The translations under genes and the position numbers were made by a program. The notes beneath the pieces are model-generated. The model worked only from the letters and a program-made list of their open reading frames with translations. It was not told where the DNA came from and did not search any database. From the NCBI GenBank assembly GCA_964445435.1, contig CAYUKU010000003.1, positions 841-64,840 on the forward strand: DNA of 64,000 nt, in the 5' to 3' direction. Below, in pieces: positions 1 to 27,037 of this stretch (its first letter is position 1; each line of letters opens with the position of its first letter). The stretch comes from an uncultured Gammaproteobacteria bacterium (GTDB taxonomy: Bacteria > Patescibacteriota > Microgenomatia > UBA10105 > UBA927).

Positions 1-1959
1 TGACAGCCGGGGTGAAATCCAGTCGTATGTTTTGAGTTTCCAGCCGCTGCTTTACAATTTCAAGCTCCTTATCGACAATTTTTTCCATAAGCGCAGGCGT
101 GAGCCGGTGAAAGATAATCAGTTGGTCCAGTCGGTTGAGAAACTCGGGTCGAAATGCCCGATTGACCACTTCCAGAACCTTGCGGCGCATATCTTCTTCA
201 CTTTTTCCGCTTGTTTCTGAAATAAGGTCGCTCCCCAGGTTTGAAGTCATGATGATAACGACGTTTTTGAAACTCACGACGCGCCCTCGGCCGTCGGTGA
301 GGCGCCCGTCATCAAGCATCTGAAGAAATACGTTGAATACCTGCGGGTGCGCTTTCTCAATTTCATCAAACAGGACGACACTGTACGGCTTCCTTCGCAC
401 TGCCTCAGTCAGCTGACCTCCTTCTTCGTATCCGACGTATCCCGGCGGAGCACCGATCAACCGTGCGACGTTATGCGCCTCCTGGTATTCACTCATGTCA
501 ATACGGATAAGAGCACGCTCGTCGTTGAACAAATACTCGGCAAGCGCTTTGGCAGTTTCCGTTTTCCCGACGCCGGTCGGCCCAAGAAAAAGAAAGCTTC
601 CGATGGGTTTCGCCTCTTCGGCTATGCCCGCCCTATTTCGGCGGATTGCCGCAGACACCTTCCGGATCGCTTCGTCCTGCCCGATGACACGCTTGTTTAA
701 CTCTGTTTCAAGATGAATAAGCTTATCTGACTCACTGGAGAGGAGTCGTGTCACGGGAATCCCGGTCCAACGGGCTACCACGCGCGCGATATCATCATCA
801 CGTACCTCCTCGCGAAGCAACCGTTCCTCTGAGGGAATCTTACCAATCTCCTTTTCCAGTTGGGCGATTCTTTTCTCCGCTTCGGGAATTTTGCCGTACT
901 TGACCTCAGCTGCCCTCTCCAGAAGTGCATCGCGCTCAGCTCTGTCCAACTCAAGACGGAGTTGATCAAGCACAACCCGCTGTTTTTGAAGCTCGCTTAT
1001 AATATGTTTTTCTTTCTCCCACCGGTCAGACAGCGACTCCTCTTTCTTTTTGAGTGTGGCAATGTCTTTTTCGACATTCTTCATCCTCTCTCCGGCGTCT
1101 TTCTCGCGTTTGAGGGCCGCCTTCTGAATTTCCAACTGCGTTAAGTGGCGCTTGAGTTCGTCAAGTTCCAGAGGCATACTCTCCGTATCAATTTTGAGCG
1201 TCGAAGCGGCCTCATCGACAAGATCAATTGCCTTGTCCGGCAAAAACCGATCCGCGATGTACCGTGAAGAAAGTGTCGCCGCGGCGACAAGGGCATCATC
1301 CGTTATGCGTATACCGTGATGCACTTCGTATTTCTCTTTGATGCCCCGCAAAATTGCAATCGTGTCTTCAACGGACGGTTCGTCCAGATACACAGGCTGG
1401 AATCTGCGCTCAAGTGCAGCGTCTTTCTCGATAAATTGACGATACTCCCGTACCGTTGTGGCGCCAATGGCATGAAGCTCGCCCCGCGCAAGAGCGGGCT
1501 TAAGAATGTTTGCCGCGTCCATGGAGCCTCCCACAGCGCCAGCGCCCACGAGCGTATGGAGCTCATCCATGAAAAGAATATACTTGCCTGCCGCCTTCTC
1601 TACTTCTTTCAGAAGCTTTTTCAGACGGTCTTCAAATTCTCCGCGGAAGGCACTTCCTGCCACCAATGACGCCACGTCGAGAACGAGAATTTCCTTGTCT
1701 TTCAACGTTGAGGGAACATCTCCAGCCACGATACGCGAGGCGAGTCCCTCTGCAATCGCCGTTTTCCCGACGCCGGGGTCCCCAAGAAGCACGGGATTGT
1801 TCTTCGTGCGGCGTGCAAGAATCTGCATCACACGACGAATCTCCTCATTCCGTCCAATGACAGGATCAAGCTTCCCCAAGCGCGCGCGCTCTGTGAGGTT
1901 TACCGTAAATTTTTCAAGCGGATTTCCTTCATCCTGCGATGGTTGATATTGAATATCCA
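1..1959 (-). CDS. clpB: ClpB-type AAA+ disaggregase (NBD1, middle coiled-coil, NBD2); 3' end runs off the window; no N-terminal domain
   Basis: The minus-strand translation reads [44 protein letters not shown]...[14 protein letters not shown] (Walker A), then a long coiled-coil middle domain, then a second Walker [21 protein letters not shown] and the C-terminal ...[11 protein letters not shown]. The frame stays open past position 1. An in-frame stop lies 4 codons upstream of the ATG, so the protein starts immediately before NBD1. Confidence 0.85.
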
Positions 1960-10030: not shown

Positions 10031-10156
10031 AATCTGTGGATAAAATGCGCTTATAAATAAATTTATTCAGCACCTGCAACTACGATCTTGGGTAGACATA
10101 CACACCCATTGCACCCTTGGGACCGCTCTGCGCCACCCCCACAAGTCGGAATTGGG

Positions 10157-10227
10157 AGCGGGATAAGGGAATCGAACCCTCTTCTCATCCTTGGGAAGGA
10201 TGCATACTACCGGTGTACTAATCCCGC
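10157..10227 (-). tRNA. tRNA-Gly (anticodon CCC)
   Basis: Minus-strand cloverleaf folded by hand: 7-bp acceptor GCGGGAT/ATCCCGC, D-arm, anticodon stem CATCC/GGATG with loop TTCCCAA (U33, CCC, A37), T-arm GAGGG-TTCGATT-CCCTT. CCA is not encoded. Confidence 0.8.
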
Positions 10228-10280
10228 CTATTCACGGAACAGAAACTACGTTTCTTTCCCGACGATTCTTCCTACCAGAG

Positions 10281-10321
10281 TGTTGCGACGGGTTCACACC
10301 CGAACGCACACCGTCGCAACA
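10281..10321. repeat. Inverted-repeat hairpin (11-bp stem, 19-nt loop) about 55 bp upstream of tRNA-Gly; one of a related family
   Basis: tgttgcgacgg-gttcacacccgaacgcaca-ccgtcgcaaca. The flank (ttcttCCTACCAgagTGTTGCGACGG) resembles the one upstream of tRNA-Asp. Confidence 0.6.
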
Positions 10322-10390
10322 GATTGATAACTCTTCGACTTCCTTTCTTTATAAGCCTTATTAATATATTTTACACGGTTCGGTACCAAA

Positions 10391-10425
10391 AGCGCCAGTG
10401 AAAGCTTCCACCGGCGCGTTTTTTG
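10391..10425. terminator. Bidirectional rho-independent terminator downstream of the LysM gene
   Basis: GC stem gcgcc...ggcgc followed by TTTTTT on the plus strand; the minus strand reads AAAAAA-stem-TTTT. It lies 20 nt past the LysM stop. Confidence 0.5.
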
Positions 10426-10444
10426 TACATTGCAATAAACAAAA

Positions 10445-10978
10445 CTACGGCAACTCCAAAATGTTGCCTGCATGAATAAGATCCGGGTTAGCTAACGTAT
10501 TGAGTCTCGCTATTTCGCTCCATCGATACCCGTTGTCGTACTGTGCCACGGCGATTTTCCAGAGACTATCTCCTGCCTTCACCGTATATTGTCGCTTCTC
10601 TGTCGTTGCCGACGAGACGACTCCTGTGGGTAGCGCAATTGGTTTCACATCGGGAATGGTTAACACGGCCCCTGCCATAATCCGGTCAGGATTGGAGAGG
10701 TTGTTTGCCCTCGCGATATCGACCCAATTGTACCCGCTTTTGAAGTATGTCTGTGCGATCGCCCAGAGCGTTTCGCCCTGTTTTACGGTGTGTTTAGTCG
10801 GAAGCGCCGTTTGCACGATTTGGTCTTTCTGCTGCTCTGCTGTCTGTCCCGCTGGAGCTGTCTTTGCTTTGAAGTAATTGAACGTAATCATGCCAATTAC
10901 TAAAACTACGGCAAATCCAAGCGCGAGCGATACATAGGAATCCGGCGTGCTAAGGCTCTTTTTCAAAGCTTTAAGCAT
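10445..10978 (-). CDS. LysM-domain peptidoglycan-binding protein, membrane anchored with two LysM repeats
   Basis: N-terminal TM helix followed by two LysM repeats (VKQGETLWAIAQTYFKSGYNWVDIARANNLSNPDRIMAGAVLTIP and YTVKAGDSLWKIAVAQYDNGYRWSEIARLNTLANPDLIHAGNILELP). Confidence 0.8.
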   Translation of the reverse strand: MLKALKKSLSTPDSYVSLALGFAVVLVIGMITFNYFKAKTAPAGQTAEQQKDQIVQTALPTKHTVKQGETLWAIAQTYFKSGYNWVDIARANNLSNPDRIMAGAVLTIPDVKPIALPTGVVSSATTEKRQYTVKAGDSLWKIAVAQYDNGYRWSEIARLNTLANPDLIHAGNILELP

Positions 10979-11024
10979 TTCGTTTCCTCCTTTCCAGGCA
11001 GTTTTGGAATATATTGGCGGGACC

Positions 11025-11102
11025 GGGGGGACTCGAACCCCTGACCTCCTCCTTGACAGGGAGGCGCTCTAACCAGGCTGAGCTACGATCCCATTATGGA
11101 GA
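11025..11102 (-). tRNA. tRNA-Asp (anticodon GTC), CCA encoded
   Basis: The minus strand reads GGGATCGTAGCTCAGCCTGGTTAGAGCGCCTCCCTGTCAAGGAGGAGGTCAGGGGTTCGAGTCCCCCCGGTCCCGCCA. The anticodon loop is CTGTCAA and the discriminator is G. Confidence 0.85.
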
Positions 11103-11148
11103 GACAACTAGACTCCCTCCAACTCTCTTTCCTACCAACGTGTCGCAG

Positions 11149-11190
11149 CTATTTCCCTCCGAACGGCACGCTGCGACGATTCATATCCTA
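11149..11190. repeat. Inverted-repeat hairpin (8-9-bp stem, 20-nt loop) about 45 bp upstream of tRNA-Asp, related to the tRNA-Gly upstream element
   Basis: cgtgtcgcagc-tatttccctccgaacggcac-gctgcgacg, preceded by CCTACCA as at tRNA-Gly. The stem differs from the Gly copy at paired positions. Confidence 0.55.
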
Positions 11191-11286
11191 ACCATAGACT
11201 TAATCACGCTCTCGCAGAATCAAATCGGGAAATAGCTTATAGATGATATCATGCGGTCGAAGAAGTGGTCAATCGTATACCGGCCG

Positions 11287-12795
11287 TTATCCCAAGCTTT
11301 TCCGAAGCACCGCAGCCTGCACAAGCAGATCGCTCGTCAGATTGTTGCGGTCGAAACGGGTAACGATAAGGTCGACAAGTTCCTTATGCTCCAGTTCTTC
11401 ATTCGATTGAGGTGACAATTCAGCCCCCAGATATTCCTCTATGGCCGCCACATCTGCCTCAACTCCCGCAAGCTGTGCATGTGTGCGAGAGAGCTTCTTG
11501 AGTGATTTTCTGTTCAGAAACCTCCCTGCCCGCCGCATATCATCTTTGAGATTGATATACGTCTTCTCAAGAAGCGGCAGAATTCCTTTTTTCTTGGCTT
11601 CCTGAAGGCCTCTTCCGGTGCCAATGAGCTCCGGCGGAATTCCGAGTGAATACATCGCCCCGGTAAATCCGATCGCACGGGGAAGCGTCACTTTCCCCAC
11701 ACCACGGGAATATCCAAACAGTCCGACATGCTGCACGCGCTCCCGGCGCTTCGGCAACAAACTCGCCACATCGTTTATCACCGGCGCCAACTGTTCCACG
11801 GTCATGCGATAGGGCTCCTCAAAGGAGGTGAACACATCTCGAAGCGCCTCTTCCTGGTCTTGTCCTATCTGCTTCGCTGTCCCTCGAGGAAGAGAGGCGT
11901 GAAGTGTTTTGACTCCTTTCACCACATCGATGAACGGAAAATCATACCGAAACGCGCTTTGGATAAGTGCGGTTCTGACTCCTTGGTATTCGTTTGCGAA
12001 TTGTTCAACAGTTGCGGGCGTCAGGCCTCCGCGAAACGGAAGCGAAGCACTGCCAATAATGGGAAAAAGTTCAATCCCCGTTTGCTTGGTGAACTCACGG
12101 TACCGCGAAAGCGCAAGTTTGATCGCAACAACCGTGGGAACGATCCCGCTGTTGAGCGCCGGATCGCTTCGGGCGACGTACGGTCGTATATACTCAGGGA
12201 CAAAGCCAAAGGATTTTTCATGAAGCGATACGTACTCCCGAAGAATCTCATCAGACCGGGAAATCGTCTCAACGTTCTCGAAAAGCGGAATAATCTCGAT
12301 GTGCTTAATCGTATCGGTGGAGAAGTTATAAAGCGTATGTTTGAGAGACGCGATCTCCCGGAACGCTTCCTGAATCGCAATCATTTCCGAAGCAGTCTGT
12401 GTCATGGGAAGAATAACCTCAAAAAGCGGTGTGCTGTGAAGACCTACCTGCTTGGCGAGACTCGCCGCGGCCAAAATCCCCATGAATGCACGACCCAAAC
12501 GAAACTCTGTCTCTACCTTCGGATTGGGGAGCCGAAAGGTGATGAATTTCTCCTTCCCGAGCTGATGTTGGGCGAAGTAATCGAAATGTTCTCCCAACAG
12601 TTTCTCGACCACCGATTCATCTACGAATTTCCCTTCCCAGTCCCACTTGTATTCATCTATCCCAAGATCGCTGAACGTAAGAAAACACTCTTTCACTTCC
12701 TGCCTCGTGCTAACAAACTCCTTCGAGTGCCAATACGGTTTGCCCGCATGATCAGGGTGTTGCGAGGCCATTGTCGTGGGGATAATCCGCTTCAT
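11287..12795 (-). CDS. ppcA: Archaeal-type phosphoenolpyruvate carboxylase (PepcA)
   Basis: 502 aa. The N-terminus (IPTTMASQHPDHAGKPYW) and overall length match the roughly 500-aa archaeal-type PEPC family, not the roughly 900-aa bacterial Ppc. Confidence 0.7.
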   Translation of the reverse strand: MKRIIPTTMASQHPDHAGKPYWHSKEFVSTRQEVKECFLTFSDLGIDEYKWDWEGKFVDESVVEKLLGEHFDYFAQHQLGKEKFITFRLPNPKVETEFRLGRAFMGILAAASLAKQVGLHSTPLFEVILPMTQTASEMIAIQEAFREIASLKHTLYNFSTDTIKHIEIIPLFENVETISRSDEILREYVSLHEKSFGFVPEYIRPYVARSDPALNSGIVPTVVAIKLALSRYREFTKQTGIELFPIIGSASLPFRGGLTPATVEQFANEYQGVRTALIQSAFRYDFPFIDVVKGVKTLHASLPRGTAKQIGQDQEEALRDVFTSFEEPYRMTVEQLAPVINDVASLLPKRRERVQHVGLFGYSRGVGKVTLPRAIGFTGAMYSLGIPPELIGTGRGLQEAKKKGILPLLEKTYINLKDDMRRAGRFLNRKSLKKLSRTHAQLAGVEADVAAIEEYLGAELSPQSNEELEHKELVDLIVTRFDRNNLTSDLLVQAAVLRKSLG

Positions 12796-12905
12796 AAGAA
12801 ATACAATGTCGTCATTGTATCACCTGAGGCTGTTTTCTGGTAAAATAGAATCCGACGAATCCGAACTACACAGATTATAAACCGGTGATAAAGTAGTTAC
12901 GAATC

Positions 12906-12944
12906 GTCGCAAGGGTGTGAAAGCGGATGCGAACCCCTTGCGAC
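12906..12944. repeat. Inverted-repeat hairpin (10-bp stem, 19-nt loop) about 50 bp upstream of tRNA-Thr, same architecture as the Gly and Asp elements
   Basis: gtcgcaaggg-tgtgaaagcggatgcgaac-cccttgcgac. It shares the GTCGCA core and a CGAAC-containing loop with the other two hairpins. Confidence 0.55.
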
Positions 12945-12994
12945 ACATCGTAGGGAAAAGCGTTGGAGAAAAACCGTAGGTTTTGCTCCAGAAC

Positions 12995-13068
12995 GCCTCT
13001 ATAGCTCAATGGCAGAGCAGCGGTATCGTAAACCGTAGACGTCAGTTCGATTCTGACTAGAGGCTCCA
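12995..13068 (+). tRNA. tRNA-Thr (anticodon CGT), CCA encoded
   Basis: GCCTCTATAGCTCAATGGCAGAGCAGCGGTATCGTAAACCGTAGACGTCAGTTCGATTCTGACTAGAGGCTCCA. The anticodon loop is ATCGTAA. Confidence 0.85.
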
Positions 13069-13072
13069 TAAC

Positions 13073-13804
13073 TTGCTATGCTCATCTATAATAGGTGGTA
13101 TGTTACGAAGCGGAAGAATCGAAGAACGAAAAGCCCGCAGAAAGATCACCCTTGCCGTCGTGGGGAGTATCGCAGTTTTGGCATTTTTCGCCCTGTTTGG
13201 CCTGAAAATTCTTGTCGGATTTAGCCTCCTTATCGATCGGATCCGCGGAAATACACCCACTACCCAATCTCAGGAAGCACTCATCCTCCCGCCGATTCTC
13301 GACCCGATACCGAGCGCCACCAATAGCAGCTCTCTTGTGGTGAACGGATCGGGACAGGCTGACCTCACGCTTCTTGTGTATGTCGATGGCGAAGAATCCG
13401 AAACAACAACCGTCTCGAAAAACGGTACCTTTACGATTACCCTCACCGATCTTTCCGAAGGCACCAAGCACATAAGCGCCAAACAAAGGGACGACAAAGG
13501 GAATATCAGTGTTCTTTCAAACGTGCTTAGCGTACTTATCAAGAAAAAGGGCCCGCTTCTAGAGCTCACCGCTCCTGAGGACCGATCGACGATCACCGGA
13601 GAAGATAACAAAGCAACCATCTCCGGCAAAACGGAAGAGGAAGCATCAATAACGGTAAACGGTCGGGTGGTCGTCGTCTCCGGAGACTCGTCGTTTACGT
13701 ATAAATACCCGCTCAACGAGGGAGAAAACAAACTGACAGTCGTCGCCACCGACCAGGCAGGAAATACCACGACCGTCGAACGCATCGTTACGTACCGGAA
13801 GTAG
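13073..13804 (+). CDS. Membrane-anchored protein with Ig-like / beta-sandwich repeats (hypothetical)
   Basis: N-terminal TM helix (ITLAVVGSIAVLAFFALFGLKILVGF), then Thr/Ser-rich beta-rich segments (TFTITLTDLSEGTKHISA, NKLTVVATDQAGNTTTVERIVTY). The real start may be M10 at about 13100. Confidence 0.5.
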   Translation: MLCSSIIGGMLRSGRIEERKARRKITLAVVGSIAVLAFFALFGLKILVGFSLLIDRIRGNTPTTQSQEALILPPILDPIPSATNSSSLVVNGSGQADLTLLVYVDGEESETTTVSKNGTFTITLTDLSEGTKHISAKQRDDKGNISVLSNVLSVLIKKKGPLLELTAPEDRSTITGEDNKATISGKTEEEASITVNGRVVVVSGDSSFTYKYPLNEGENKLTVVATDQAGNTTTVERIVTYRK

Positions 13805-19736: not shown

Positions 19737-20616
19737 AAAGATGTTTCAAGTATTTAAGTATTCCGTCAAATACTCCTCGGAACGGAGTCACTAGAGAATT
19801 TATACTTACTTCTCTACCGAATCCGAACATACATCTTAGAATCCAATTCACTCTGGTGATGACAAAAAATGGAAAAAGGAATAAGTTTCTATTCTTTAGA
19901 AAAAAGTAGGTTTCGTTACTAAAGAAGTGGAAATACCAAAAAAGTCTATTGTCTACTTTCCGCGCTCCTCCGTGCGGTTCTCTTAGGTGATAAACCAAGG
20001 CTTTTGGTTCGAAAATAATTTTGTATCCCTTTGCTTTAGCGCGAAGGGATAAGTCTGATTCTTCTCTCATTGCATTGCCGGTAAATTTTTCGTCGAATCC
20101 GCCAATCTCCTCAAATAACGTACGGCGCCAACTAGCGTTGCACCCAATAACCGTATCGATTTCCTGTTTAACAGTGGACGAATAGCCATCTGAAAAAATC
20201 GCCAATTTAGAAATTCTTCCAACTTTATCATTCGTATGTTGAATATTTTGTCCATATGCTATTGATCGCCCGCAGACTGCTGCAACGTTATCATCGGCAT
20301 AAGATAACTCGTGGTTCTGAACTAGGTTGGGCATGGCTACGACGTCGTCGTCTAAAAAAAGCAGATATTTTCCAGTGGCGACATTTGCGCCGACATTTTT
20401 CGCATGCGACGTGCTTGCCTCAGAAAGATATATATATTTAAGTTTTAGATCTTTTTGCTTTGCAATTGTGGCTATAATTTGTTTGTTGTTAACTTCTTGC
20501 TCTACTACGACTATCTCCCTAATAAACTCTTTTTCTGTTACTAAAGAGTTAAGCAATCGAACTAAACTTTTTCTTCTCCTATATGTGGGAACTACAATAG
20601 AAAAATTAGCCCTCAT
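19720..20616 (-). CDS. Family 2 glycosyltransferase (GT2)
   Basis: FSIVVPTYRRRKSLVRLLNSL...YLLFLDDDVV carries the GT2 DxD region. The DNA is AT-rich. Confidence 0.75.
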   Translation of the reverse strand: MRANFSIVVPTYRRRKSLVRLLNSLVTEKEFIREIVVVEQEVNNKQIIATIAKQKDLKLKYIYLSEASTSHAKNVGANVATGKYLLFLDDDVVAMPNLVQNHELSYADDNVAAVCGRSIAYGQNIQHTNDKVGRISKLAIFSDGYSSTVKQEIDTVIGCNASWRRTLFEEIGGFDEKFTGNAMREESDLSLRAKAKGYKIIFEPKALVYHLREPHGGARKVDNRLFWYFHFFSNETYFFLKNRNLFLFPFFVITRVNWILRCMFGFGREVSINSLVTPFRGVFDGILKYLKHLYENRS

Positions 20617-21766
20617 ATAAATTAAATAATCGCATGAATCCGATACGTTTTTTGTTAATATTGAATCTTGAAATTATGAAGCGCCTAGCCCTATCACCAA
20701 TTTCTCTTCTTTTCGCGGAATCATTCAGAATCATTTCCACCGCCTTTAGATATTCTCTTAGAGATCCACTATGAATAAGTATTCCGTTCTTACCATCTTC
20801 AATAAGTTCCCTGTTCCCTCCAATATCCGACGCAACCACGGGTAGTCCCATTGATAATGACTCTAGAAGGGCTATAGACAATCCCTCTTGATGGTTCGAA
20901 GGGAAAATAACGATATCGCTTATTCCCAAAAAGTCTCGCACTTTGTCCGTGTATCCAACCACTGTAACTCTTTCTTCCAGGTTTACACTTTTGATTTTAC
21001 CTCTCAAATAGTTTATTAATGGTCCACTCCCTACTATTAAAAAATGCAAACTTAAATCCTTTCGTGTCTGTATTAATTTAGTTGCTACTTGGAAAAATGT
21101 ATGAATTCCTTTTTCTTTTGTGATACTACCAATAAAAGTAATTATGATGTCATTTGCTTCAAAATTCATAGTTTTTCTAAGATTGTTTTTCTTCTCAGGT
21201 TTGAAAGGTTCGAAATGCTCAACATCTATTCCTATGGGAATATATAAGATTTTATCTGGCGATACTCCGCCGTTGATTAAATCTTTTTTAGTTCCCTCGG
21301 ATACTGCAAGTATCTTTCTTGAAAATCTGCTTACAATCGAATACAGAAGCTTTATAACTTTTGACCTAGGAGTTATGAAAAGTGGCCCATGTTCTATCCA
21401 TATGACTTTATAACCGGCTAATTTAAGTATCGGGGTCAGTAGTATTTTTTCCGTCATCGACTGAAGGCATATTAAATTGATTCGTTTACCTCCCATTAAT
21501 TTCCTTAAATTTATGTAATAGAGGAATAGATATAGTGGAAATGTAAATAGTAACTTCACTAATTGACTGTGTGTGCCTATTTCCATACTCAGTTGGGGCA
21601 CAGTTATGGTTTTCACTCCTAGGTCTGAGGCTTCCTTTGAAAATTTTTCAAAATTAGTAAGTAGATAGAATCTATATTTGGCGCTGCGAAGTTTATCGAA
21701 CAACAAATAGTTATATTTTTCTGCGCCACTAACACTAGAGCAAATCCTAATTACTAAAATATTCAT
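20606..21766 (-). CDS. Family 4 glycosyltransferase (GT4)
   Basis: EGLSIALLESLSMGLPVVASDIGGNRELIEDGKNGILIHSGS. Confidence 0.8.
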   Translation of the reverse strand: MNILVIRICSSVSGAEKYNYLLFDKLRSAKYRFYLLTNFEKFSKEASDLGVKTITVPQLSMEIGTHSQLVKLLFTFPLYLFLYYINLRKLMGGKRINLICLQSMTEKILLTPILKLAGYKVIWIEHGPLFITPRSKVIKLLYSIVSRFSRKILAVSEGTKKDLINGGVSPDKILYIPIGIDVEHFEPFKPEKKNNLRKTMNFEANDIIITFIGSITKEKGIHTFFQVATKLIQTRKDLSLHFLIVGSGPLINYLRGKIKSVNLEERVTVVGYTDKVRDFLGISDIVIFPSNHQEGLSIALLESLSMGLPVVASDIGGNRELIEDGKNGILIHSGSLREYLKAVEMILNDSAKRREIGDRARRFIISRFNINKKRIGFMRLFNLYEG

Positions 21767-22509
21767 AATTTGCGAGCCACAAGAGTAAATGCTTCACCTC
21801 TAAAAAAAGGTGAGAACCTTGAAAAGCCTTTCACAAGAAGAACATCGAACGCTATTATAAAGTGCCATAGAAATCGAAATTCCTGCCACTTTTGGAGTCT
21901 CAGTTTAATCATAATTCGGTTAAATAGATGAAAAGCCTTAGAAGTGAAGAATGTTATATCCTCTATTACAAAACCTTTACTTCTTAAACTCTCAATTATT
22001 TCTAGTGGCTTAATACCTTCTTCTATCGGACTTTCCCCCTGGCCCCTTTTTAAGGCCTCATAAGTAGGCTCTCTCAGTAGAAGATAGCCTCCGCGGGACA
22101 GGATAGCGCACCAGTTACTAAGAGCATGTTCTTTGCTGATTGTGTGGTGCAGTGCTCCTAAGGATATAATACAATTCGCTGACCCCTTAGGAAATCTGAT
22201 TGTTTCAATATCACCAACTTTAAAAGTACCTGATGGCATGTTTTTTTTTGCAATCTGGAGCATATTTTTCGAAATATCCACACCTATATAGCGAATATTG
22301 TTTAGTAAGTCGTTACTCAGTATCCTTTTGATTGAAATCGCTGGTCCACACCCCATATCAATAACAACATCCGATTTGCGAATATATTTTGCTTTTAGCA
22401 AAAACATTTGTTCTGGAACCTCCCAAATAAAATCATTCTCTCTTCTAAAAGAATATTTTTTTGCCGTTTTATCGTGATGAACTCGCTCAAGTTCAAGAAA
22501 GTTGTTCAT
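21763..22509 (-). CDS. Class I SAM-dependent methyltransferase
   Basis: VIDMGCGPAISIKRIL (motif I) and CIISLGALHH (motif II). Confidence 0.7.
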   Translation of the reverse strand: MNNFLELERVHHDKTAKKYSFRRENDFIWEVPEQMFLLKAKYIRKSDVVIDMGCGPAISIKRILSNDLLNNIRYIGVDISKNMLQIAKKNMPSGTFKVGDIETIRFPKGSANCIISLGALHHTISKEHALSNWCAILSRGGYLLLREPTYEALKRGQGESPIEEGIKPLEIIESLRSKGFVIEDITFFTSKAFHLFNRIMIKLRLQKWQEFRFLWHFIIAFDVLLVKGFSRFSPFFRGEAFTLVARKL

Positions 22510-23900
22510 ACATCGAAGATTAATTTGTATTCTTTCGTACCATGATATCTTCTTTGAAGGAAAGTAACATATATAGCGGAAACGATAAATTCCGTTATCA
22601 CGGTTGTCACACTTGCCCCCAGAAACCCGTAATTCGGAATAACAAACATATTCAGAAGAATATTCAAAAAAAGTGAAATAGATAGTACCTTAATTATTGT
22701 TTTGATTTCGCCGAAAGTTAGTAACACATGGTAATAAACGTTATTTAATAAAAAGAAAGGAACTGCTAACAAGAGTATTTTAAGCGAACTTACGCTTAGA
22801 GAAAACTCGGCTCCTCCCAGAAGACCTATAAGGGGTTCCGCGAAAATTAAACCTCCAGTGACGATAAATATCGATAAAACAACTAATGCGAAATATGTCT
22901 TACGCAACAGGTCACTATATCTATCAAAATTTGATTTTAGATAATATTTGGAAAGAAGTGGAAAGACGCTTGCCATATAAAATCCCCAAAAAGTAAGAAG
23001 ATTTTCGAGAACCTTGTAAGACAAACCATAAATTCCCACTTCTGATGTAGATTTAAATGCGGCAAGCAACAATGTGTCAATTTTAAAATAGAGAAGCGAA
23101 ATGAAGGTTGTAAGTCCTATGGGAAAACTATTCATCAAAATATTTCTAATAACCCGTTTGTCTATTGACAGATTGAAAAATAGGACATCTCTGATTGGTA
23201 TAGCGGAAACAAATAACCCGACCAAATTTCCAAGAAATACTGCAAAAACCAACCCAACAATATTAAACTTCAAGTAGACGAACAAAAAGGTGAAACCTAT
23301 AGTAATAAATTTTACTACTAACTCTATCCCTGCGACTAAATCGAGTCTGACTCTCGATTGCAATATCGAAGTATTGTAAGAAGCCAGATTACCGATTCCG
23401 ACTCCAAGTATTCCGACAAGAATTGCTTTTTTTACGGTTAATGAATACGGGGAGAAAAATAATCCAATTAAAGATAGAAGCACCGAAACGAAAACTAGAA
23501 ACAATTTTGTATTTATATACGAGGCCAGTACTATCCTTGCTACACTAAGTTTTCCTGCCAAATTTCTTACTAATGCGGTATTAAAGCCTAAATCAGAAAA
23601 AGCAATGAAAAAGGATATATATGCAAACACCAAAGAATAGTCACCATAACCACTAGTGCCCAAGTATCTTGTTAGTATTATCACGCTCGCTAAACTAATT
23701 AACAAAGATATCGTCCTAGAAATAAATTGAGCAATGGTGTTGACAAGGATTTTTCTATCTTCTAGCTCCTCCTCAACAGCTGGTTTGTTGTAGTTCGTCA
23801 TAAAACGACTAACAGATTTTAGCCAAGGAAATAATCCTAAACCCTTGACATAGCCTAATATTATACTTAATCTGAGATAAAGAGGCAGGTCTAAATACAT
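22506..23900 (-). CDS. wzx: Polysaccharide biosynthesis protein / Wzx-type oligosaccharide flippase (MOP superfamily)
   Basis: 464 aa with about 12-14 TM helices. The Leu/Ile/Phe-rich composition is typical of Wzx flippases, and the gene terminates the glycosyltransferase operon. Confidence 0.6.
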   Translation of the reverse strand: MYLDLPLYLRLSIILGYVKGLGLFPWLKSVSRFMTNYNKPAVEEELEDRKILVNTIAQFISRTISLLISLASVIILTRYLGTSGYGDYSLVFAYISFFIAFSDLGFNTALVRNLAGKLSVARIVLASYINTKLFLVFVSVLLSLIGLFFSPYSLTVKKAILVGILGVGIGNLASYNTSILQSRVRLDLVAGIELVVKFITIGFTFLFVYLKFNIVGLVFAVFLGNLVGLFVSAIPIRDVLFFNLSIDKRVIRNILMNSFPIGLTTFISLLYFKIDTLLLAAFKSTSEVGIYGLSYKVLENLLTFWGFYMASVFPLLSKYYLKSNFDRYSDLLRKTYFALVVLSIFIVTGGLIFAEPLIGLLGGAEFSLSVSSLKILLLAVPFFLLNNVYYHVLLTFGEIKTIIKVLSISLFLNILLNMFVIPNYGFLGASVTTVITEFIVSAIYVTFLQRRYHGTKEYKLIFDV

Positions 23901-25844
23901 GTGCTTAAAAGTCTAAGATTATTGTTCTTTTGCTCAACATGGTTATTACTTGCTCGAATTTTTCCAGTTCGAGCTGAAACCATCTTCTTAGATACCTTTT
24001 CTGGAGGCCATAACAGCTCTCTATGGACTATAGAAGAGAACAGATCTATTCCGATACCCTCCCCATTTGGAATTGGCGATACAAACACAGGGAACTTCTA
24101 CGTTCTGGTATCTACAACACAACCATTGCCTGCTAATAATATTGTATCCTTCGATATGAAAATCCATAGCGACCCTTCAGCGATGTGGTTTTCATGCAAC
24201 GATGCAAACAATTCCGCTAACGAACGGAGAGTTGCTCTACGAAATAATGGAACGTTTACCTTTGAAGTATTCTTAAACGGAGGCGGGTTAGGCAGTAATT
24301 TTATGAATTGGGATAATTCACCTGGAATCCATCATTTTGAATTTGACTGTTTTGGTAGCTTATTAATTCTTAAAGAAGATGATGTTACCCTTGGAAGCTG
24401 GGATCATACATCTACTTTTGTCCCAGATAAAGTCCGTTTTTTTTATAAGGACGGAGATACGGAATTCGCTAATTACCAATTATGCGATACCAATGGCTGC
24501 GATCCGCTGCCAAGCTCGACGCCCTCACCCACTCCCTCTCCATCCCCCACACCCACGCCAACACCAACGCCTACACCAACTCCGATTCCGGTGACAAAAG
24601 TGGTAGTTGTCCCGGGCATACTGTCTTCCATAAGCGACGCTCTCATTAACTGTGAACCAGGCGATGGATCTGAAACGTGGAATCTCATCGAATACGCGAA
24701 GACAACATACGAGCCTCTCTATCAGGGAATGCAAAATGCGGGATTTTCTGTGTACCCATTCTATTACGATTGGAGAAGAACGCCAAACCAGAACGCCGCT
24801 AATCTCGACGGCTTCATTGATAGTATCGTGTCTCCGGACGAAAAAATCTATGTACTAGGACATAGCTTGGGCGGATTGGTAGCGCGAGCCTATTTGGAGC
24901 AGGTGCAGCAGGACTCGCGCATCGATAGTCTGTTAACGGTGGGATCTCCCCACGCAGGCGCACTCGATTCATATGTAGTATGGGAAGGAGCACAATTGCC
25001 GGAGTGGCTGCAAGACAATATTCCGGCGCGTTTTCTTCATTTTTACATCTCCGCCTGGTGCCCACTTGTAAAGGGAAGACAATCTCCTATTGAGGGTGTT
25101 CGTAACTATATGCCCGTTTTTACGAATCTTCTGCCCGTCTTTGACTATCTCAGAGATCAAAAAACCGATACGCTAAAGCCCACCCTGGGACTCATCCACC
25201 AGAACACTTGGCTACCAAATAATTCCTTTTATTTCCCCTTCTTCGGAACAAGGGTGGGAACACTGCGAGGGACCAATCAAAAAACGTTGCGTGAATATGT
25301 AGTTAAACCACGCAGTCCTCTTGAGGCAAAACAAGGACTTTGGGATGACGGAAAGCCAATCTCGTACGTATGGTCCCAAGAGGGAGATAATAGGGTGCTG
25401 TTTACGAGTTCTTTCATCCCCGGAGGCGACAACAGTCGGGTTTTGCCGCTTGAACATAATGCGCTCGTATCATCTTCAGGTGGCATTACCCAAATTCTCG
25501 ATTTTTTTGGCATGGGGACTGTACTCCCGAATTTACAGGCGCTTACCTCTATGGAGCCAACCTCTGCTCTCATAGTTCTCTCAAATGAGGCAACACTCTT
25601 CATGGAGACACCCGACGGAAAAAAACAGTCGGATCAAAACGGCATGACCACAATTCTTAACCCGCAGGCAGGCACCTACAAGCTCACAATATCACCAGAC
25701 AAACCATTCGCCCGCTTCGTGATCTTGCAGCTGCTTCCAAATGGAAAAACACTATGGAAAGAATATCACGCTACTGGCAAAAGCATAGAAAAAAGAACAC
25801 TCAATTTTTCTCAAAAGTATCCATCCGAAAACATTTTGCAATAA
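23901..25844 (+). CDS. Secreted LCAT/PGAP1-like alpha/beta-hydrolase (lipase/acyltransferase) with an N-terminal domain and a Pro-Thr linker
   Basis: Signal peptide (MLKSLRLLFFCSTWLLLARIFPVRA), an N-terminal domain of about 190 aa, a PT linker (PSSTPSPTPSPSPTPTPTPTPTPTP), a YDWRR motif characteristic of the LCAT family, and the nucleophile elbow GHSLGG. Confidence 0.6.
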   Translation: MLKSLRLLFFCSTWLLLARIFPVRAETIFLDTFSGGHNSSLWTIEENRSIPIPSPFGIGDTNTGNFYVLVSTTQPLPANNIVSFDMKIHSDPSAMWFSCNDANNSANERRVALRNNGTFTFEVFLNGGGLGSNFMNWDNSPGIHHFEFDCFGSLLILKEDDVTLGSWDHTSTFVPDKVRFFYKDGDTEFANYQLCDTNGCDPLPSSTPSPTPSPSPTPTPTPTPTPTPIPVTKVVVVPGILSSISDALINCEPGDGSETWNLIEYAKTTYEPLYQGMQNAGFSVYPFYYDWRRTPNQNAANLDGFIDSIVSPDEKIYVLGHSLGGLVARAYLEQVQQDSRIDSLLTVGSPHAGALDSYVVWEGAQLPEWLQDNIPARFLHFYISAWCPLVKGRQSPIEGVRNYMPVFTNLLPVFDYLRDQKTDTLKPTLGLIHQNTWLPNNSFYFPFFGTRVGTLRGTNQKTLREYVVKPRSPLEAKQGLWDDGKPISYVWSQEGDNRVLFTSSFIPGGDNSRVLPLEHNALVSSSGGITQILDFFGMGTVLPNLQALTSMEPTSALIVLSNEATLFMETPDGKKQSDQNGMTTILNPQAGTYKLTISPDKPFARFVILQLLPNGKTLWKEYHATGKSIEKRTLNFSQKYPSENILQ

Positions 25845-26960: not shown

Positions 26961-27037
26961 TGGTGGGCGGTATAGGAGTCGAACCTATGACCTTTTCAAT
27001 GTCAATGAAACGCTCTAGCCAACTGAGCTAACCGCCC
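26961..27037 (-). tRNA. tRNA-Val (anticodon GAC), CCA encoded
   Basis: The minus strand reads GGGCGGTTAGCTCAGTTGGCTAGAGCGTTTCATTGACATTGAAAAGGTCATAGGTTCGACTCCTATACCGCCCACCA. Confidence 0.85.

Follow-up and report, generated by a model that had tools for sequence, protein, structure and literature searches.

The window analysed here is a stretch of 64 kb from an uncultured bacterium of the Patescibacteria (candidate phyla radiation, CPR), and it supplies all data from this organism's own genome. ARAGORN and Rfam report four tRNA genes in it, i.e., Gly(ccc), Asp(gtc), Thr(cgt) and Val(gac), and a gene for an archaeal-type phosphoenolpyruvate (PEP) carboxylase lies between tRNA-Asp and tRNA-Thr. 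The closest homologues of this carboxylase are, where their source is named, labelled Patescibacteria or Gottesmanbacteria. Upstream of the Gly, Asp and Thr genes, an original prediction made from the letters of the DNA had placed a family of hairpins with 10-bp stems and loops of 19-20 nt. These hairpins are related beyond chance, and each turns out to be the first of two hairpins (H1 and H2) within a module of about 100 nt that directly abuts the tRNA gene. The tRNA genes and the three copies of the module are:

10153 to 10227, minus strand: tRNA-Gly(ccc); ARAGORN sets its start at 10228, while orthologues open with GCGGGAT, which places the start at 10227
10228 to 10329, minus strand: Gly copy of the module, type A, covariance model 94.3 bits (E 1.4e-22); box TATCAATC 10322-10329, H1 10281-10321, linker 10262-10280, H2 10235-10261, tail 10228-10234
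11015 to 11092, minus strand: tRNA-Asp(gtc) (ARAGORN, Rfam)
11093 to 11185, minus strand: Asp copy of the module, type B, covariance model 71.9 bits (E 8.9e-17); box TATGAATC 11178-11185, H1 11142-11177, linker 11123-11141, H2 11097-11122, tail 11093-11096
12898 to 12994, plus strand: Thr copy of the module, type A, covariance model 95.2 bits (E 7.8e-23); box TACGAATC 12898-12905, H1 12906-12944, linker 12945-12963, H2 12964-12990, tail 12991-12994
12995 to 13068, plus strand: tRNA-Thr(cgt) (ARAGORN, Rfam)
26961 to 27037, minus strand: tRNA-Val(gac), the control without the module, with TATAAT 11 nt upstream of the mature 5' end

Anatomy of the module

Read from 5' to 3' in the tRNA direction, the module consists of an A/T-rich TAnnAATC box, hairpin H1 (stem 8-11 bp, loop 19-20 nt), a linker, hairpin H2 and a short tail that reaches tRNA position -1. 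The linker is nearly invariant, purine-rich and single-stranded (ACAC-N3-4-GUAGGRA-N6-UYGGRR). H2 combines a stem of 11-12 bp, the 5' arm of which is purine-rich, with a loop of 3-4 nt (e.g., UGGAGaAAAACC-gua-GGUUUUgCUCCA), and the tail of 4-8 nt (e.g., AGAAC or AUAAU) abuts the tRNA. The two hairpins are unrelated to each other; H1 is followed by ACAC and H2 by AGAAY. For the Thr copy, an outer helix of 5 bp (TACGA/TCGTA) is also possible. Applied to the whole window without filters, a covariance model derived from 12 copies reports exactly three sites in the 64 kb, all before tRNAs and in tRNA orientation. No further sense-strand copy was found by this unfiltered model in the window, where the next candidates have E values of at least 0.6, and tRNA-Val has no copy; the original prediction had noted only a weak 5-bp palindrome at the equivalent place.

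All three inverted repeats are located where the prediction had put them. The Gly hairpin (10281-10321) has a stem of 11 bp and the Thr hairpin (12906-12944) one of 10 bp, each with a loop of 19 nt. For the Asp hairpin (11142-11177, loop 20 nt) the place was right but the stem length was not, i.e., it has 8 instead of 10 bp. The distance to the tRNA is indeed near constant (53, 49 and 50 nt upstream of Gly, Asp and Thr, respectively), and no U-run follows any of the three. The predicted hairpin is thus real, but as H1 it makes up only about 40% of the conserved unit. Within the window, GTCGCA-N15-30-TGCGAC has 2 matches compared with 0.05 expected by chance, and ACAC-N2-6-GTAGGRA has 3 compared with 0.13 expected, the latter all at the tRNA-proximal side of the hairpins.

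The shared sequence motifs that had been proposed needed more revision. A GTCGCA core was said to be common to all left arms; the Gly left arm has TTGCGAC instead. The 7-mer TTGCGAC/GTCGCAA occurs in the window at chance frequency (10 vs. 10.4 expected) such that the H1 arms do not represent a sequence motif. Homology of the Gly and Thr H1 becomes visible only in a loop-anchored alignment, in which three stem positions differ and all three are compensated. Likewise, the CGAAC assigned to all loops covers two different strings, namely the antisense of a mid-loop GTTCGG in Gly and Asp and a loop-terminal GCGAAC in Thr. When the copies are read in tRNA direction and anchored at their loops, the loops do match (tGTG...GAAC), and the truly common motif is GAAC/AATA at the loop 3' end. 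Finally, the flank CCTACCA...TGT ascribed to Gly and Asp is real in both but not limited to them, since Thr has it too. It is the antisense of ACAC-N-GGTAGG, i.e., the start of the conserved linker, after which the second hairpin follows.

Conserved fold and predicted place in the transcript

Base pair statistics were derived from a model-fitted alignment of 13 copies. In line with the expectation of the original prediction that structure rather than sequence is conserved, 14 of the 21 pairs, spread over both stems, change on both sides, and 88.8% of the cells hold standard pairs vs. 39-50% when the partners are slid. The observed covariation score was reached by none of 500 column shuffles. 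H2 alone is paired in 96.4% of its cells. The respective figure for H1 is an underestimate, since MAFFT placed the shorter H1 arms of type B three columns out of register and the model, too, left them misaligned. Once these arms are re-registered by hand, 113 of 116 H1 cells are standard pairs, with 10 different stem sequences among the 13 copies. That is, the comparison of copies shows both helices to be kept by compensatory changes. This also holds for orthologous copies at the Gly position (L025, L006 and L005; such handles denote the loci that were compared with the window), which differ by four double compensatory substitutions without a single broken pair. As these are orthologues, their covariation is evidence independent of copying between loci. 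On the tRNA-sense strand, G.U exceeds A.C by 6 to 1 in H2 and by 10 to 4 overall, which fits, and leans towards, a sense transcript, while a hairpin of single-stranded DNA of the same strand would be compatible as well. Judged by these alignments, purifying selection or an equivalent force acts on the two-hairpin fold and the single-stranded linker over long divergence.

In these genomes, element-free tRNA genes show a canonical -10 box at a distance of 8-13 nt from the mature 5' end, such that their leaders comprise only a few nt. At the loci with the module, predicted promoters are found further upstream:

10368 to 10373, minus strand: TAAAAT, -10-like box and candidate promoter for the Gly copy, 46 nt upstream of H1 and after the terminator of the LysM gene
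11243 to 11272, minus strand: TTGACC-18-TATCAT, TG-extended sigma-70-type promoter of tRNA-Asp, conserved in relatives with and without the element
12838 to 12846, plus strand: TGgTAAAAT, extended -10 promoter of tRNA-Thr, 59 nt upstream of H1

The Asp promoter is situated 56-65 nt before H1 in the window and in L002 and directly before the tRNA in L003 and L025. The Thr promoter TGnTAAAAT is common to the window, L002 (with element) and L003 (remnant only), and the Arg(tcg) promoter TTGTCA-17-TATAAT is present both in L014, where the site is filled, and in L030, where it is empty. The Lys copy of L014 and the Cys copy of L020 are located in tRNA-tRNA spacers that show no promoter-like box. 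A promoter scan found no promoter inside the elements of the window, and their boxes are poor -10 hexamers (TATGAA, TACGAA and TATCAA) without a -35. These comparisons show that the element lies, in tRNA orientation, between the tRNA's own predicted promoter and +1. Given the native promoters upstream and the spacer copies, the element appears to be part of the pre-tRNA leader and not a promoter, operator or terminator. The proposed role as a tRNA promoter or operator is not supported on these grounds and also in view of the three different stems within one genome. At its other end, the module stops exactly at the predicted RNase P cleavage site at tRNA +1. Since leaders normally comprise a few nt in these genomes, a covarying module of about 100 nt between promoter and tRNA is unexpected, all the more so in view of its exchange among different tRNA genes; CPR/Patescibacteria genomes are tiny and tightly packed.

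Further observations concern the same leaders and their surroundings. In the Asp leader, the native AGCUAUUUCCC (11227-11237), located just behind the promoter, shows perfect complementarity over 11 nt to GGGAAAUAGCU (11147-11157), which is part of the H1 loop and right arm; pairing of the two would compete with H1. Relatives have AGCTATTT as a native part of their Asp leaders; AATAGCT is a typical string of type B copies. Near the Gly locus, terminators with U-runs are found at 10392-10417 and 10449-10468, and none at H1 or H2. The former is the terminator hairpin after the LysM gene (minus strand). Among its orthologous sites (L002, L003, L005, L006, L025 and L026) the apical GGAAGCUUUC is kept, and its stem is fully different between relatives (GCGCCGGU, CGCCACU, CCUGACG, CAUCAAU); in L026 this hairpin stands 7 nt from tRNA-Gly and has no U-run. 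On the 3' side of tRNA-Thr, a TATAAT is placed 7 nt before the ATG (13100) of an Ig-domain protein gene (window 13087-13102). Together with the tRNA genes that have TATAAT at 8-11 nt from +1, this promoter-like box suggests that near-leaderless transcripts are common in this bacterium.

Distribution and turnover of the copies

We collected 15 full copies from about 10 related Microgenomates lineages. The association with tRNA genes that had been suspected is found for 3/3 copies in the window and for 14/15 in total, with nine anticodons represented and one of the tRNAs being a decayed pseudogene. All 15 copies are co-oriented with the downstream gene. Given related copies in the window as well as in relatives, the suggested small repeat family proved right, too. 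The same three tRNAs recur at the syntenic loci of relatives, in which PEP carboxylase is 69-86% identical. At the Gly position, a copy occurs in the window as well as in L005, L006/L017 and L025, whose PEP carboxylases are 69-74% identical to that of the window; it is absent from L002 and L026, and L003 keeps H2 only. Among these loci, the Asp copy is found in the window and L002 only. The Thr copy is present in the same two, with only the 3' half of H2 retained in L003.

Pattern scans revealed extra copies before tRNA-Leu(taa), Arg(tcg), Lys(ctt), Arg(ccg) and Cys(gca). In L009, a Roizmanbacteria contig, 5 nt separate the end of the copy from the ATG of an rmlA-like gene. L030, a relative of the scaffold with the Leu, Arg and Lys copies, is without the latter two and has a divergent copy before tRNA-Val(cac). 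The scans of sequence collections used a strict linker/H2 pattern with 14 plain bases, which misses divergent copies, among them L014-Lys, L030-Val and the window Gly copy, such that copy number and taxonomic breadth are lower bounds. Within genome contigs this pattern matched 7 stretches, 5 of which are true and stem from 4 genomes. For metagenome contigs, 2 of 10 stretches are true, and viral contigs gave none.

Two sequence types, A and B, coexist within genomes. In type A, H1 ends ..GG/UGUG..GAAC/CC.., while type B has GUCGCAGC/GUGC..AAUA/GCUGCGAC in H1 and GUUGUCUCUCC within H2. The types are not tied to a locus, i.e., the Asp copy is of type B in the window and of type A in L002, and the Thr copy is of type A in the window with a type B remnant in L003. 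The L002-Thr copy is a chimera. Some paralogues from different genomes are near-identical over 60 nt; the window's Thr copy resembles the L002 Asp copy and its Asp copy resembles the L012 Leu copy. Losses are equally apparent: all three copies of L003 were lost via three different deletions. L014 has an orphan left arm beside a full copy.

Compared with the empty L003 site, the full extra block at the Asp locus spans 11093-11229. The L009 copy is a lineage-specific insertion at the rmlA-like gene without counterpart in rmlA orthologues (75-84% identity). In these, 4-6 nt (L027, L029) or 89 nt (L028) remain between the end of the upstream open reading frame (ORF) and the ATG, and the covariance model has no match upstream of rmlA in L027, L028 or L029. 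None of the rmlA-like genes of L027, L028, L029 and L009 has a Shine-Dalgarno sequence before the ATG, with or without the module. We found neither terminal inverted repeats nor a target-site duplication at the filled/empty pairs (Asp, Gly, rmlA, Arg and Lys). On the 5' side, the junction is ragged, with 25-55 nt of unrelated, non-conserved DNA; the idea that these nucleotides before H1 are decayed older copies was dropped, as local alignment scores are no better than for shuffles. No gene for a transposase, a reverse transcriptase, a transposase of the RAYT type (associated with repetitive extragenic palindromes, REPs) or a Cas protein is present among the ten neighbouring proteins examined. 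Taken together, the locus comparisons show the element to be a dispersed repeat, copies of which are gained, deleted and exchanged between tRNA loci, with one before a protein-coding gene. Selection on the fold and repeat-like turnover hold at once.

Some of the loci deserve a separate remark. In L025 (12304-12378 and 11532-11604, both minus strand), ARAGORN reports a 'tRNA-Stop(tta)', which is a decayed tRNA-Gly duplicate in which the acceptor and anticodon stems are mismatched. The leader module is retained here, with GUGGGG instead of GUAGGG in the linker, and an intact tRNA-Gly(ccc) without module is found 700 nt away. L020 carries at about 709-780 (plus strand) a tRNA-Cys(gca) with an unusual D-arm that was missed by ARAGORN; it comes after a module that follows tRNA-Ala(cgc). 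The CPR-type module is also seen on L012/L014 (PHFX01000034.1, labelled Candidatus Brocadia sp. WS118) and on L011 (CAYHFH010000058.1, labelled Gammaproteobacteria). The closest named homologue of a protein from PHFX01000034.1 (77% identical) is labelled Gottesmanbacteria, and the contigs of L012/L014 and L011 are probably mis-binned Patescibacteria. L011 contains a stretch of N within or between two copies, which suggests an assembly break at the repeat. A Clostridia-labelled metagenome-assembled genome (GC 0.29) has a 379-bp tandem duplication (L013 5680-6183 / L015 7964-8485, minus strand) with ACAC-N4-GTAGGAAAGGGAGTTGGGAGGGAAACC and then a different, longer hairpin closed by A8/T8, which adjoins tRNA-Leu and is convergent with it. 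With weak covariance-model scores (18-20 bits, E about 0.01-0.03), this stretch could be a distant relative or a chance match. Elsewhere in the window, positions 20001-24000 form a low-GC island (0.35 vs. about 0.50 elsewhere) within a run of minus-strand genes; the matching region of relatives contains variable glycosyltransferase and methyltransferase genes, and the island is probably a variable surface-polysaccharide cluster.

Interpretation and known systems

We read the element as a structured leader module of tRNA precursors that is carried by a subset of tRNA genes in one Microgenomates clade (Patescibacteria/CPR), and we give this reading about an even chance. Transcription from the tRNA's own promoter would make the module part of the precursor, in which it would fold autonomously into its two hairpins. 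Cleavage by RNase P at tRNA +1 would then remove it and leave a discrete leader RNA that has one hairpin at its 5' end and another, protective one at its 3' end. The linker, invariant and purine-rich, would be the working part, i.e., a putative binding site for a protein or an RNA. The module may act in cis on the stability or processing of the precursor or protect the long untranslated leader; it may also act in trans as a small RNA made by RNase P.

A number of points weigh against this reading. Transcription, release by RNase P and stability of the leader RNA are what we infer from sequence features. The L009 copy has no tRNA downstream, such that release by RNase P is inapplicable there. 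The range looks narrow, since only 4 of 185,579 species genomes yielded copies in a scan with a pattern to which 10 of 14 known copies conform. Furthermore, genomes can do without the element: in L003 all three copies are lost or truncated, L026 is without the Gly copy, and L030 is without the Arg and Lys copies. An outer helix, in which the box pairs with ..GUA, is not consistently present. Finally, a good -10 box is placed 1-3 nt before H1 in L012 (TGTGTATAATc, a perfect TG-extended TATAAT), L020 (TGtTAGTATtct) and L006 (TAAAATac). If such an adjacent -10 box fires, transcription would start inside the left arm of H1, and the resulting RNA would be unable to form H1.

The main rival explanation is a selfish, non-autonomous mobile element that prefers the spot 5' of tRNAs and has no host function, which we regard as possible though rather unlikely. 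It would be copied as DNA (via single-stranded hairpins, as REPINs, i.e., hairpin-forming REP doublets, or IS200/IS605-type elements) or via an RNA intermediate, and its fold would be kept for mobility or since self-contained hairpins spare tRNA folding. Much of the observed turnover fits this explanation, i.e., the filled and empty orthologous sites (Asp, window vs. L003/L025; Gly, L006 vs. L026; Arg and Lys, L014 vs. L030; rmlA, L009 vs. L027/L029), paralogues that are more alike across genomes than orthologues, the swapping of types A and B at the same tRNA, the chimeric L002-Thr copy, the orphan left arm of L014, the joint decay of all copies in L003, and the narrow and patchy distribution. 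On the other hand, the filled/empty pairs lack the terminal inverted repeats and target-site duplications of such elements, H1 and H2 are unrelated in contrast to the paired end hairpins of the IS200/IS605 type, the 5' boundary is ragged with its 25-55 nt of non-conserved DNA, and the ten neighbouring proteins include no transposase, reverse transcriptase or RAYT. The Gly-position copy was moreover retained with compensatory evolution across lineages in which the neighbouring protein is about 70% identical. Strict co-orientation and near-exclusive tRNA association would require a targeting mechanism, and we know of no such mechanism for tRNA 5' ends in bacteria. A DNA-level promoter cassette (a 'mobile promoter' with the box as -10 and H1 as operator or as supercoiling-sensitive cruciform at the start) appears improbable. 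The -10-like box does abut H1 in most copies, with the L012, L020 and L006 boxes as the best cases, a new promoter could be of consequence at the L009 insertion, which separates two tightly coupled genes, and prokaryotes have been documented to reuse promoters before unrelated genes (PMC3575422). Yet the boxes of the window are poor, and conserved native promoters are present 46-65 nt further upstream. The stems differ within one genome and covary, unlike an operator for one dimeric protein; H2 covaries most strongly and would be transcribed anyway; and copies in tRNA-tRNA spacers need no promoter.

Even less probable is a cis-acting signal for RNA polymerase or processing, like boxB-boxA, with a factor that guards the long leader from Rho or directs a nuclease. 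The order of a hairpin with kept structure and variable sequence, an invariant single-stranded box and a second hairpin, promoter-proximal in stable-RNA transcripts, is what such a signal would look like. However, the linker is purine-rich (GUAGGRA..UUGGRG), unlike the pyrimidine-rich boxA consensus of rrn operons and lambda nut sites, most tRNA genes here manage with leaders of 1-13 nt without such a signal, and the need for it would arise only from the insertion itself. For chance palindromes or unusual terminators of upstream genes, the GC-rich stems in intergenic DNA could be quoted, but we consider this explanation refuted and its probability close to nil: the covariance model yields E values of 1e-16 to 1e-23, the stems covary across about 10 lineages, no U-run follows while ordinary U-run terminators are nearby (10392-10417), and the Thr copy is preceded by a divergent gene. 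An intrinsic terminator is a GC-rich stem with a 3-8 nt loop and a subsequent U-run; H1 has a 19-20 nt loop and no U-run, and a terminator scan called none at H1 or H2.

Further ideas were discarded. Rfam 15 at gathering threshold matched only the 4 tRNAs in the whole window, and with E up to 10 no Rfam family was placed on the leaders within 10100-13100. H1 resembles some 36-nt repeats of CRISPR arrays (short palindromic repeats that are clustered and regularly interspaced) in length and ends; the window has no such arrays, the three H1 sequences differ, and no cas genes occur among the neighbours examined. For a CsrA sponge with GGA motifs, a simple motif scan of the 64-kb window found no csrA-like ORF. 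A pseudoknot of the loop GUG with the flanking CAC was rejected: both are invariant, the variants in L009 and L014-Lys lack compensation, and the geometry is unfavourable. A promoter of the extracytoplasmic function (ECF) type (GAAC-N15-16-GTAGG) would be about 2 nt short of the ECF consensus spacing and would leave the covariation unexplained. Also a tRNA-derived origin, suggested by GUUCGG and GGUAG as T- and D-loop-like strings, was dropped; tRNA models do not match the leaders and the strings are not conserved across copies. Literature searches gave no description of such a tRNA-leader element.

Returning to the reading as a leader module, a functional element would constitute a new class of structured RNA tied to tRNA biogenesis; to our knowledge, there is almost no experimental RNA biology for CPR bacteria. 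A selfish element would be, as far as we know, the first bacterial repeat family with a preference for tRNA 5' ends and would raise the question of how this site is recognised. A long shot that goes beyond both is a bacterial counterpart of eukaryotic tRNA-targeting mobile elements and/or a trans-acting RNA of a new class that RNase P would generate in CPR. Here, an RNA unit with its 3' end set by RNase P would be copied onto other tRNA 5' ends and occasionally onto other genes, possibly through an RNA intermediate (e.g., template switching or a ligation to processed 5' ends, with reverse transcription and recombination as subsequent steps). Such a route would account for several features at once, namely modules that abut +1 exactly, ragged 5' ends, strict co-orientation and types that are swapped between loci. 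The covariance model is a means to annotate these leaders, and the filled/empty sites are natural experiments for metatranscriptomics.

Compared with known systems, the element shows partial similarities only. REPs are 20-40 nt long, occur in tens to hundreds of copies, mostly 3' of genes and in either orientation, and often form inverted doublets. The module shares with REP/REPIN elements that it is a short extragenic repeat with hairpin potential, several copies per genome, long persistence and (as predicted for the module) frequent co-transcription with neighbours, and that a conserved GTAG-type tetranucleotide stands beside the palindrome. It differs in its length of about 100 nt, its two unrelated hairpins, its 3 copies in 64 kb that sit co-oriented at tRNA 5' ends, and the lack of a RAYT, which mobilises REP/REPIN elements (PMC8049555, PMC3184786), among the ten neighbouring proteins scanned. 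Transposable elements of the miniature inverted-repeat type (MITEs, e.g., the Correia elements of Neisseria), which can be co-transcribed with flanking genes (reviewed in PMC10969869), are likewise 100-150 bp long, non-coding and dispersed, with indel polymorphism between close relatives and a folded transcript, the latter being predicted for the module. In contrast to MITEs, the module has neither terminal inverted repeats nor target-site duplications. Palindrome-associated elements derived from IS200/IS605 have similar subterminal hairpins at both ends that are recognised by one TnpA, a symmetry that the module does not share.

Putative mobile promoters (PMC3575422) also provide homologous 5' regions upstream of unrelated genes within and between genomes; here, the native promoters remain upstream of the repeat, which is defined by RNA-type covariation. 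With boxB-boxA leaders of rRNA the module has the architecture in common, i.e., a stable-RNA leader in which a hairpin that varies in sequence precedes a conserved single-stranded box, while its box sequence is unrelated and it is found, dispensably, at a minority of tRNA genes. Small RNAs cut out of tRNA precursors are known, as are RNAs that receive their 3' end from RNase P at a tRNA-like structure downstream (3'ETS-leuZ of E. coli; MALAT1-mascRNA). By analogy, the module may be a structured RNA that is co-transcribed with a tRNA, freed by tRNA-processing enzymes and protected by a terminal structure. The known bacterial RNAs from tRNA precursors are single-locus trailers or spacers, whereas the module, known here from sequence, is a repeated 5' leader on many tRNAs. 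Finally, the retroelements Ty3 of yeast and TRE5-A of Dictyostelium are autonomous, recognise Pol III factors and have their insertion sites upstream of the transcription start. The orientation-specific, repeated association with the 5' side of many different tRNA genes is common to them and to the module, which differs from both in being bacterial, non-coding, about 100 nt long and located inside the predicted transcript.

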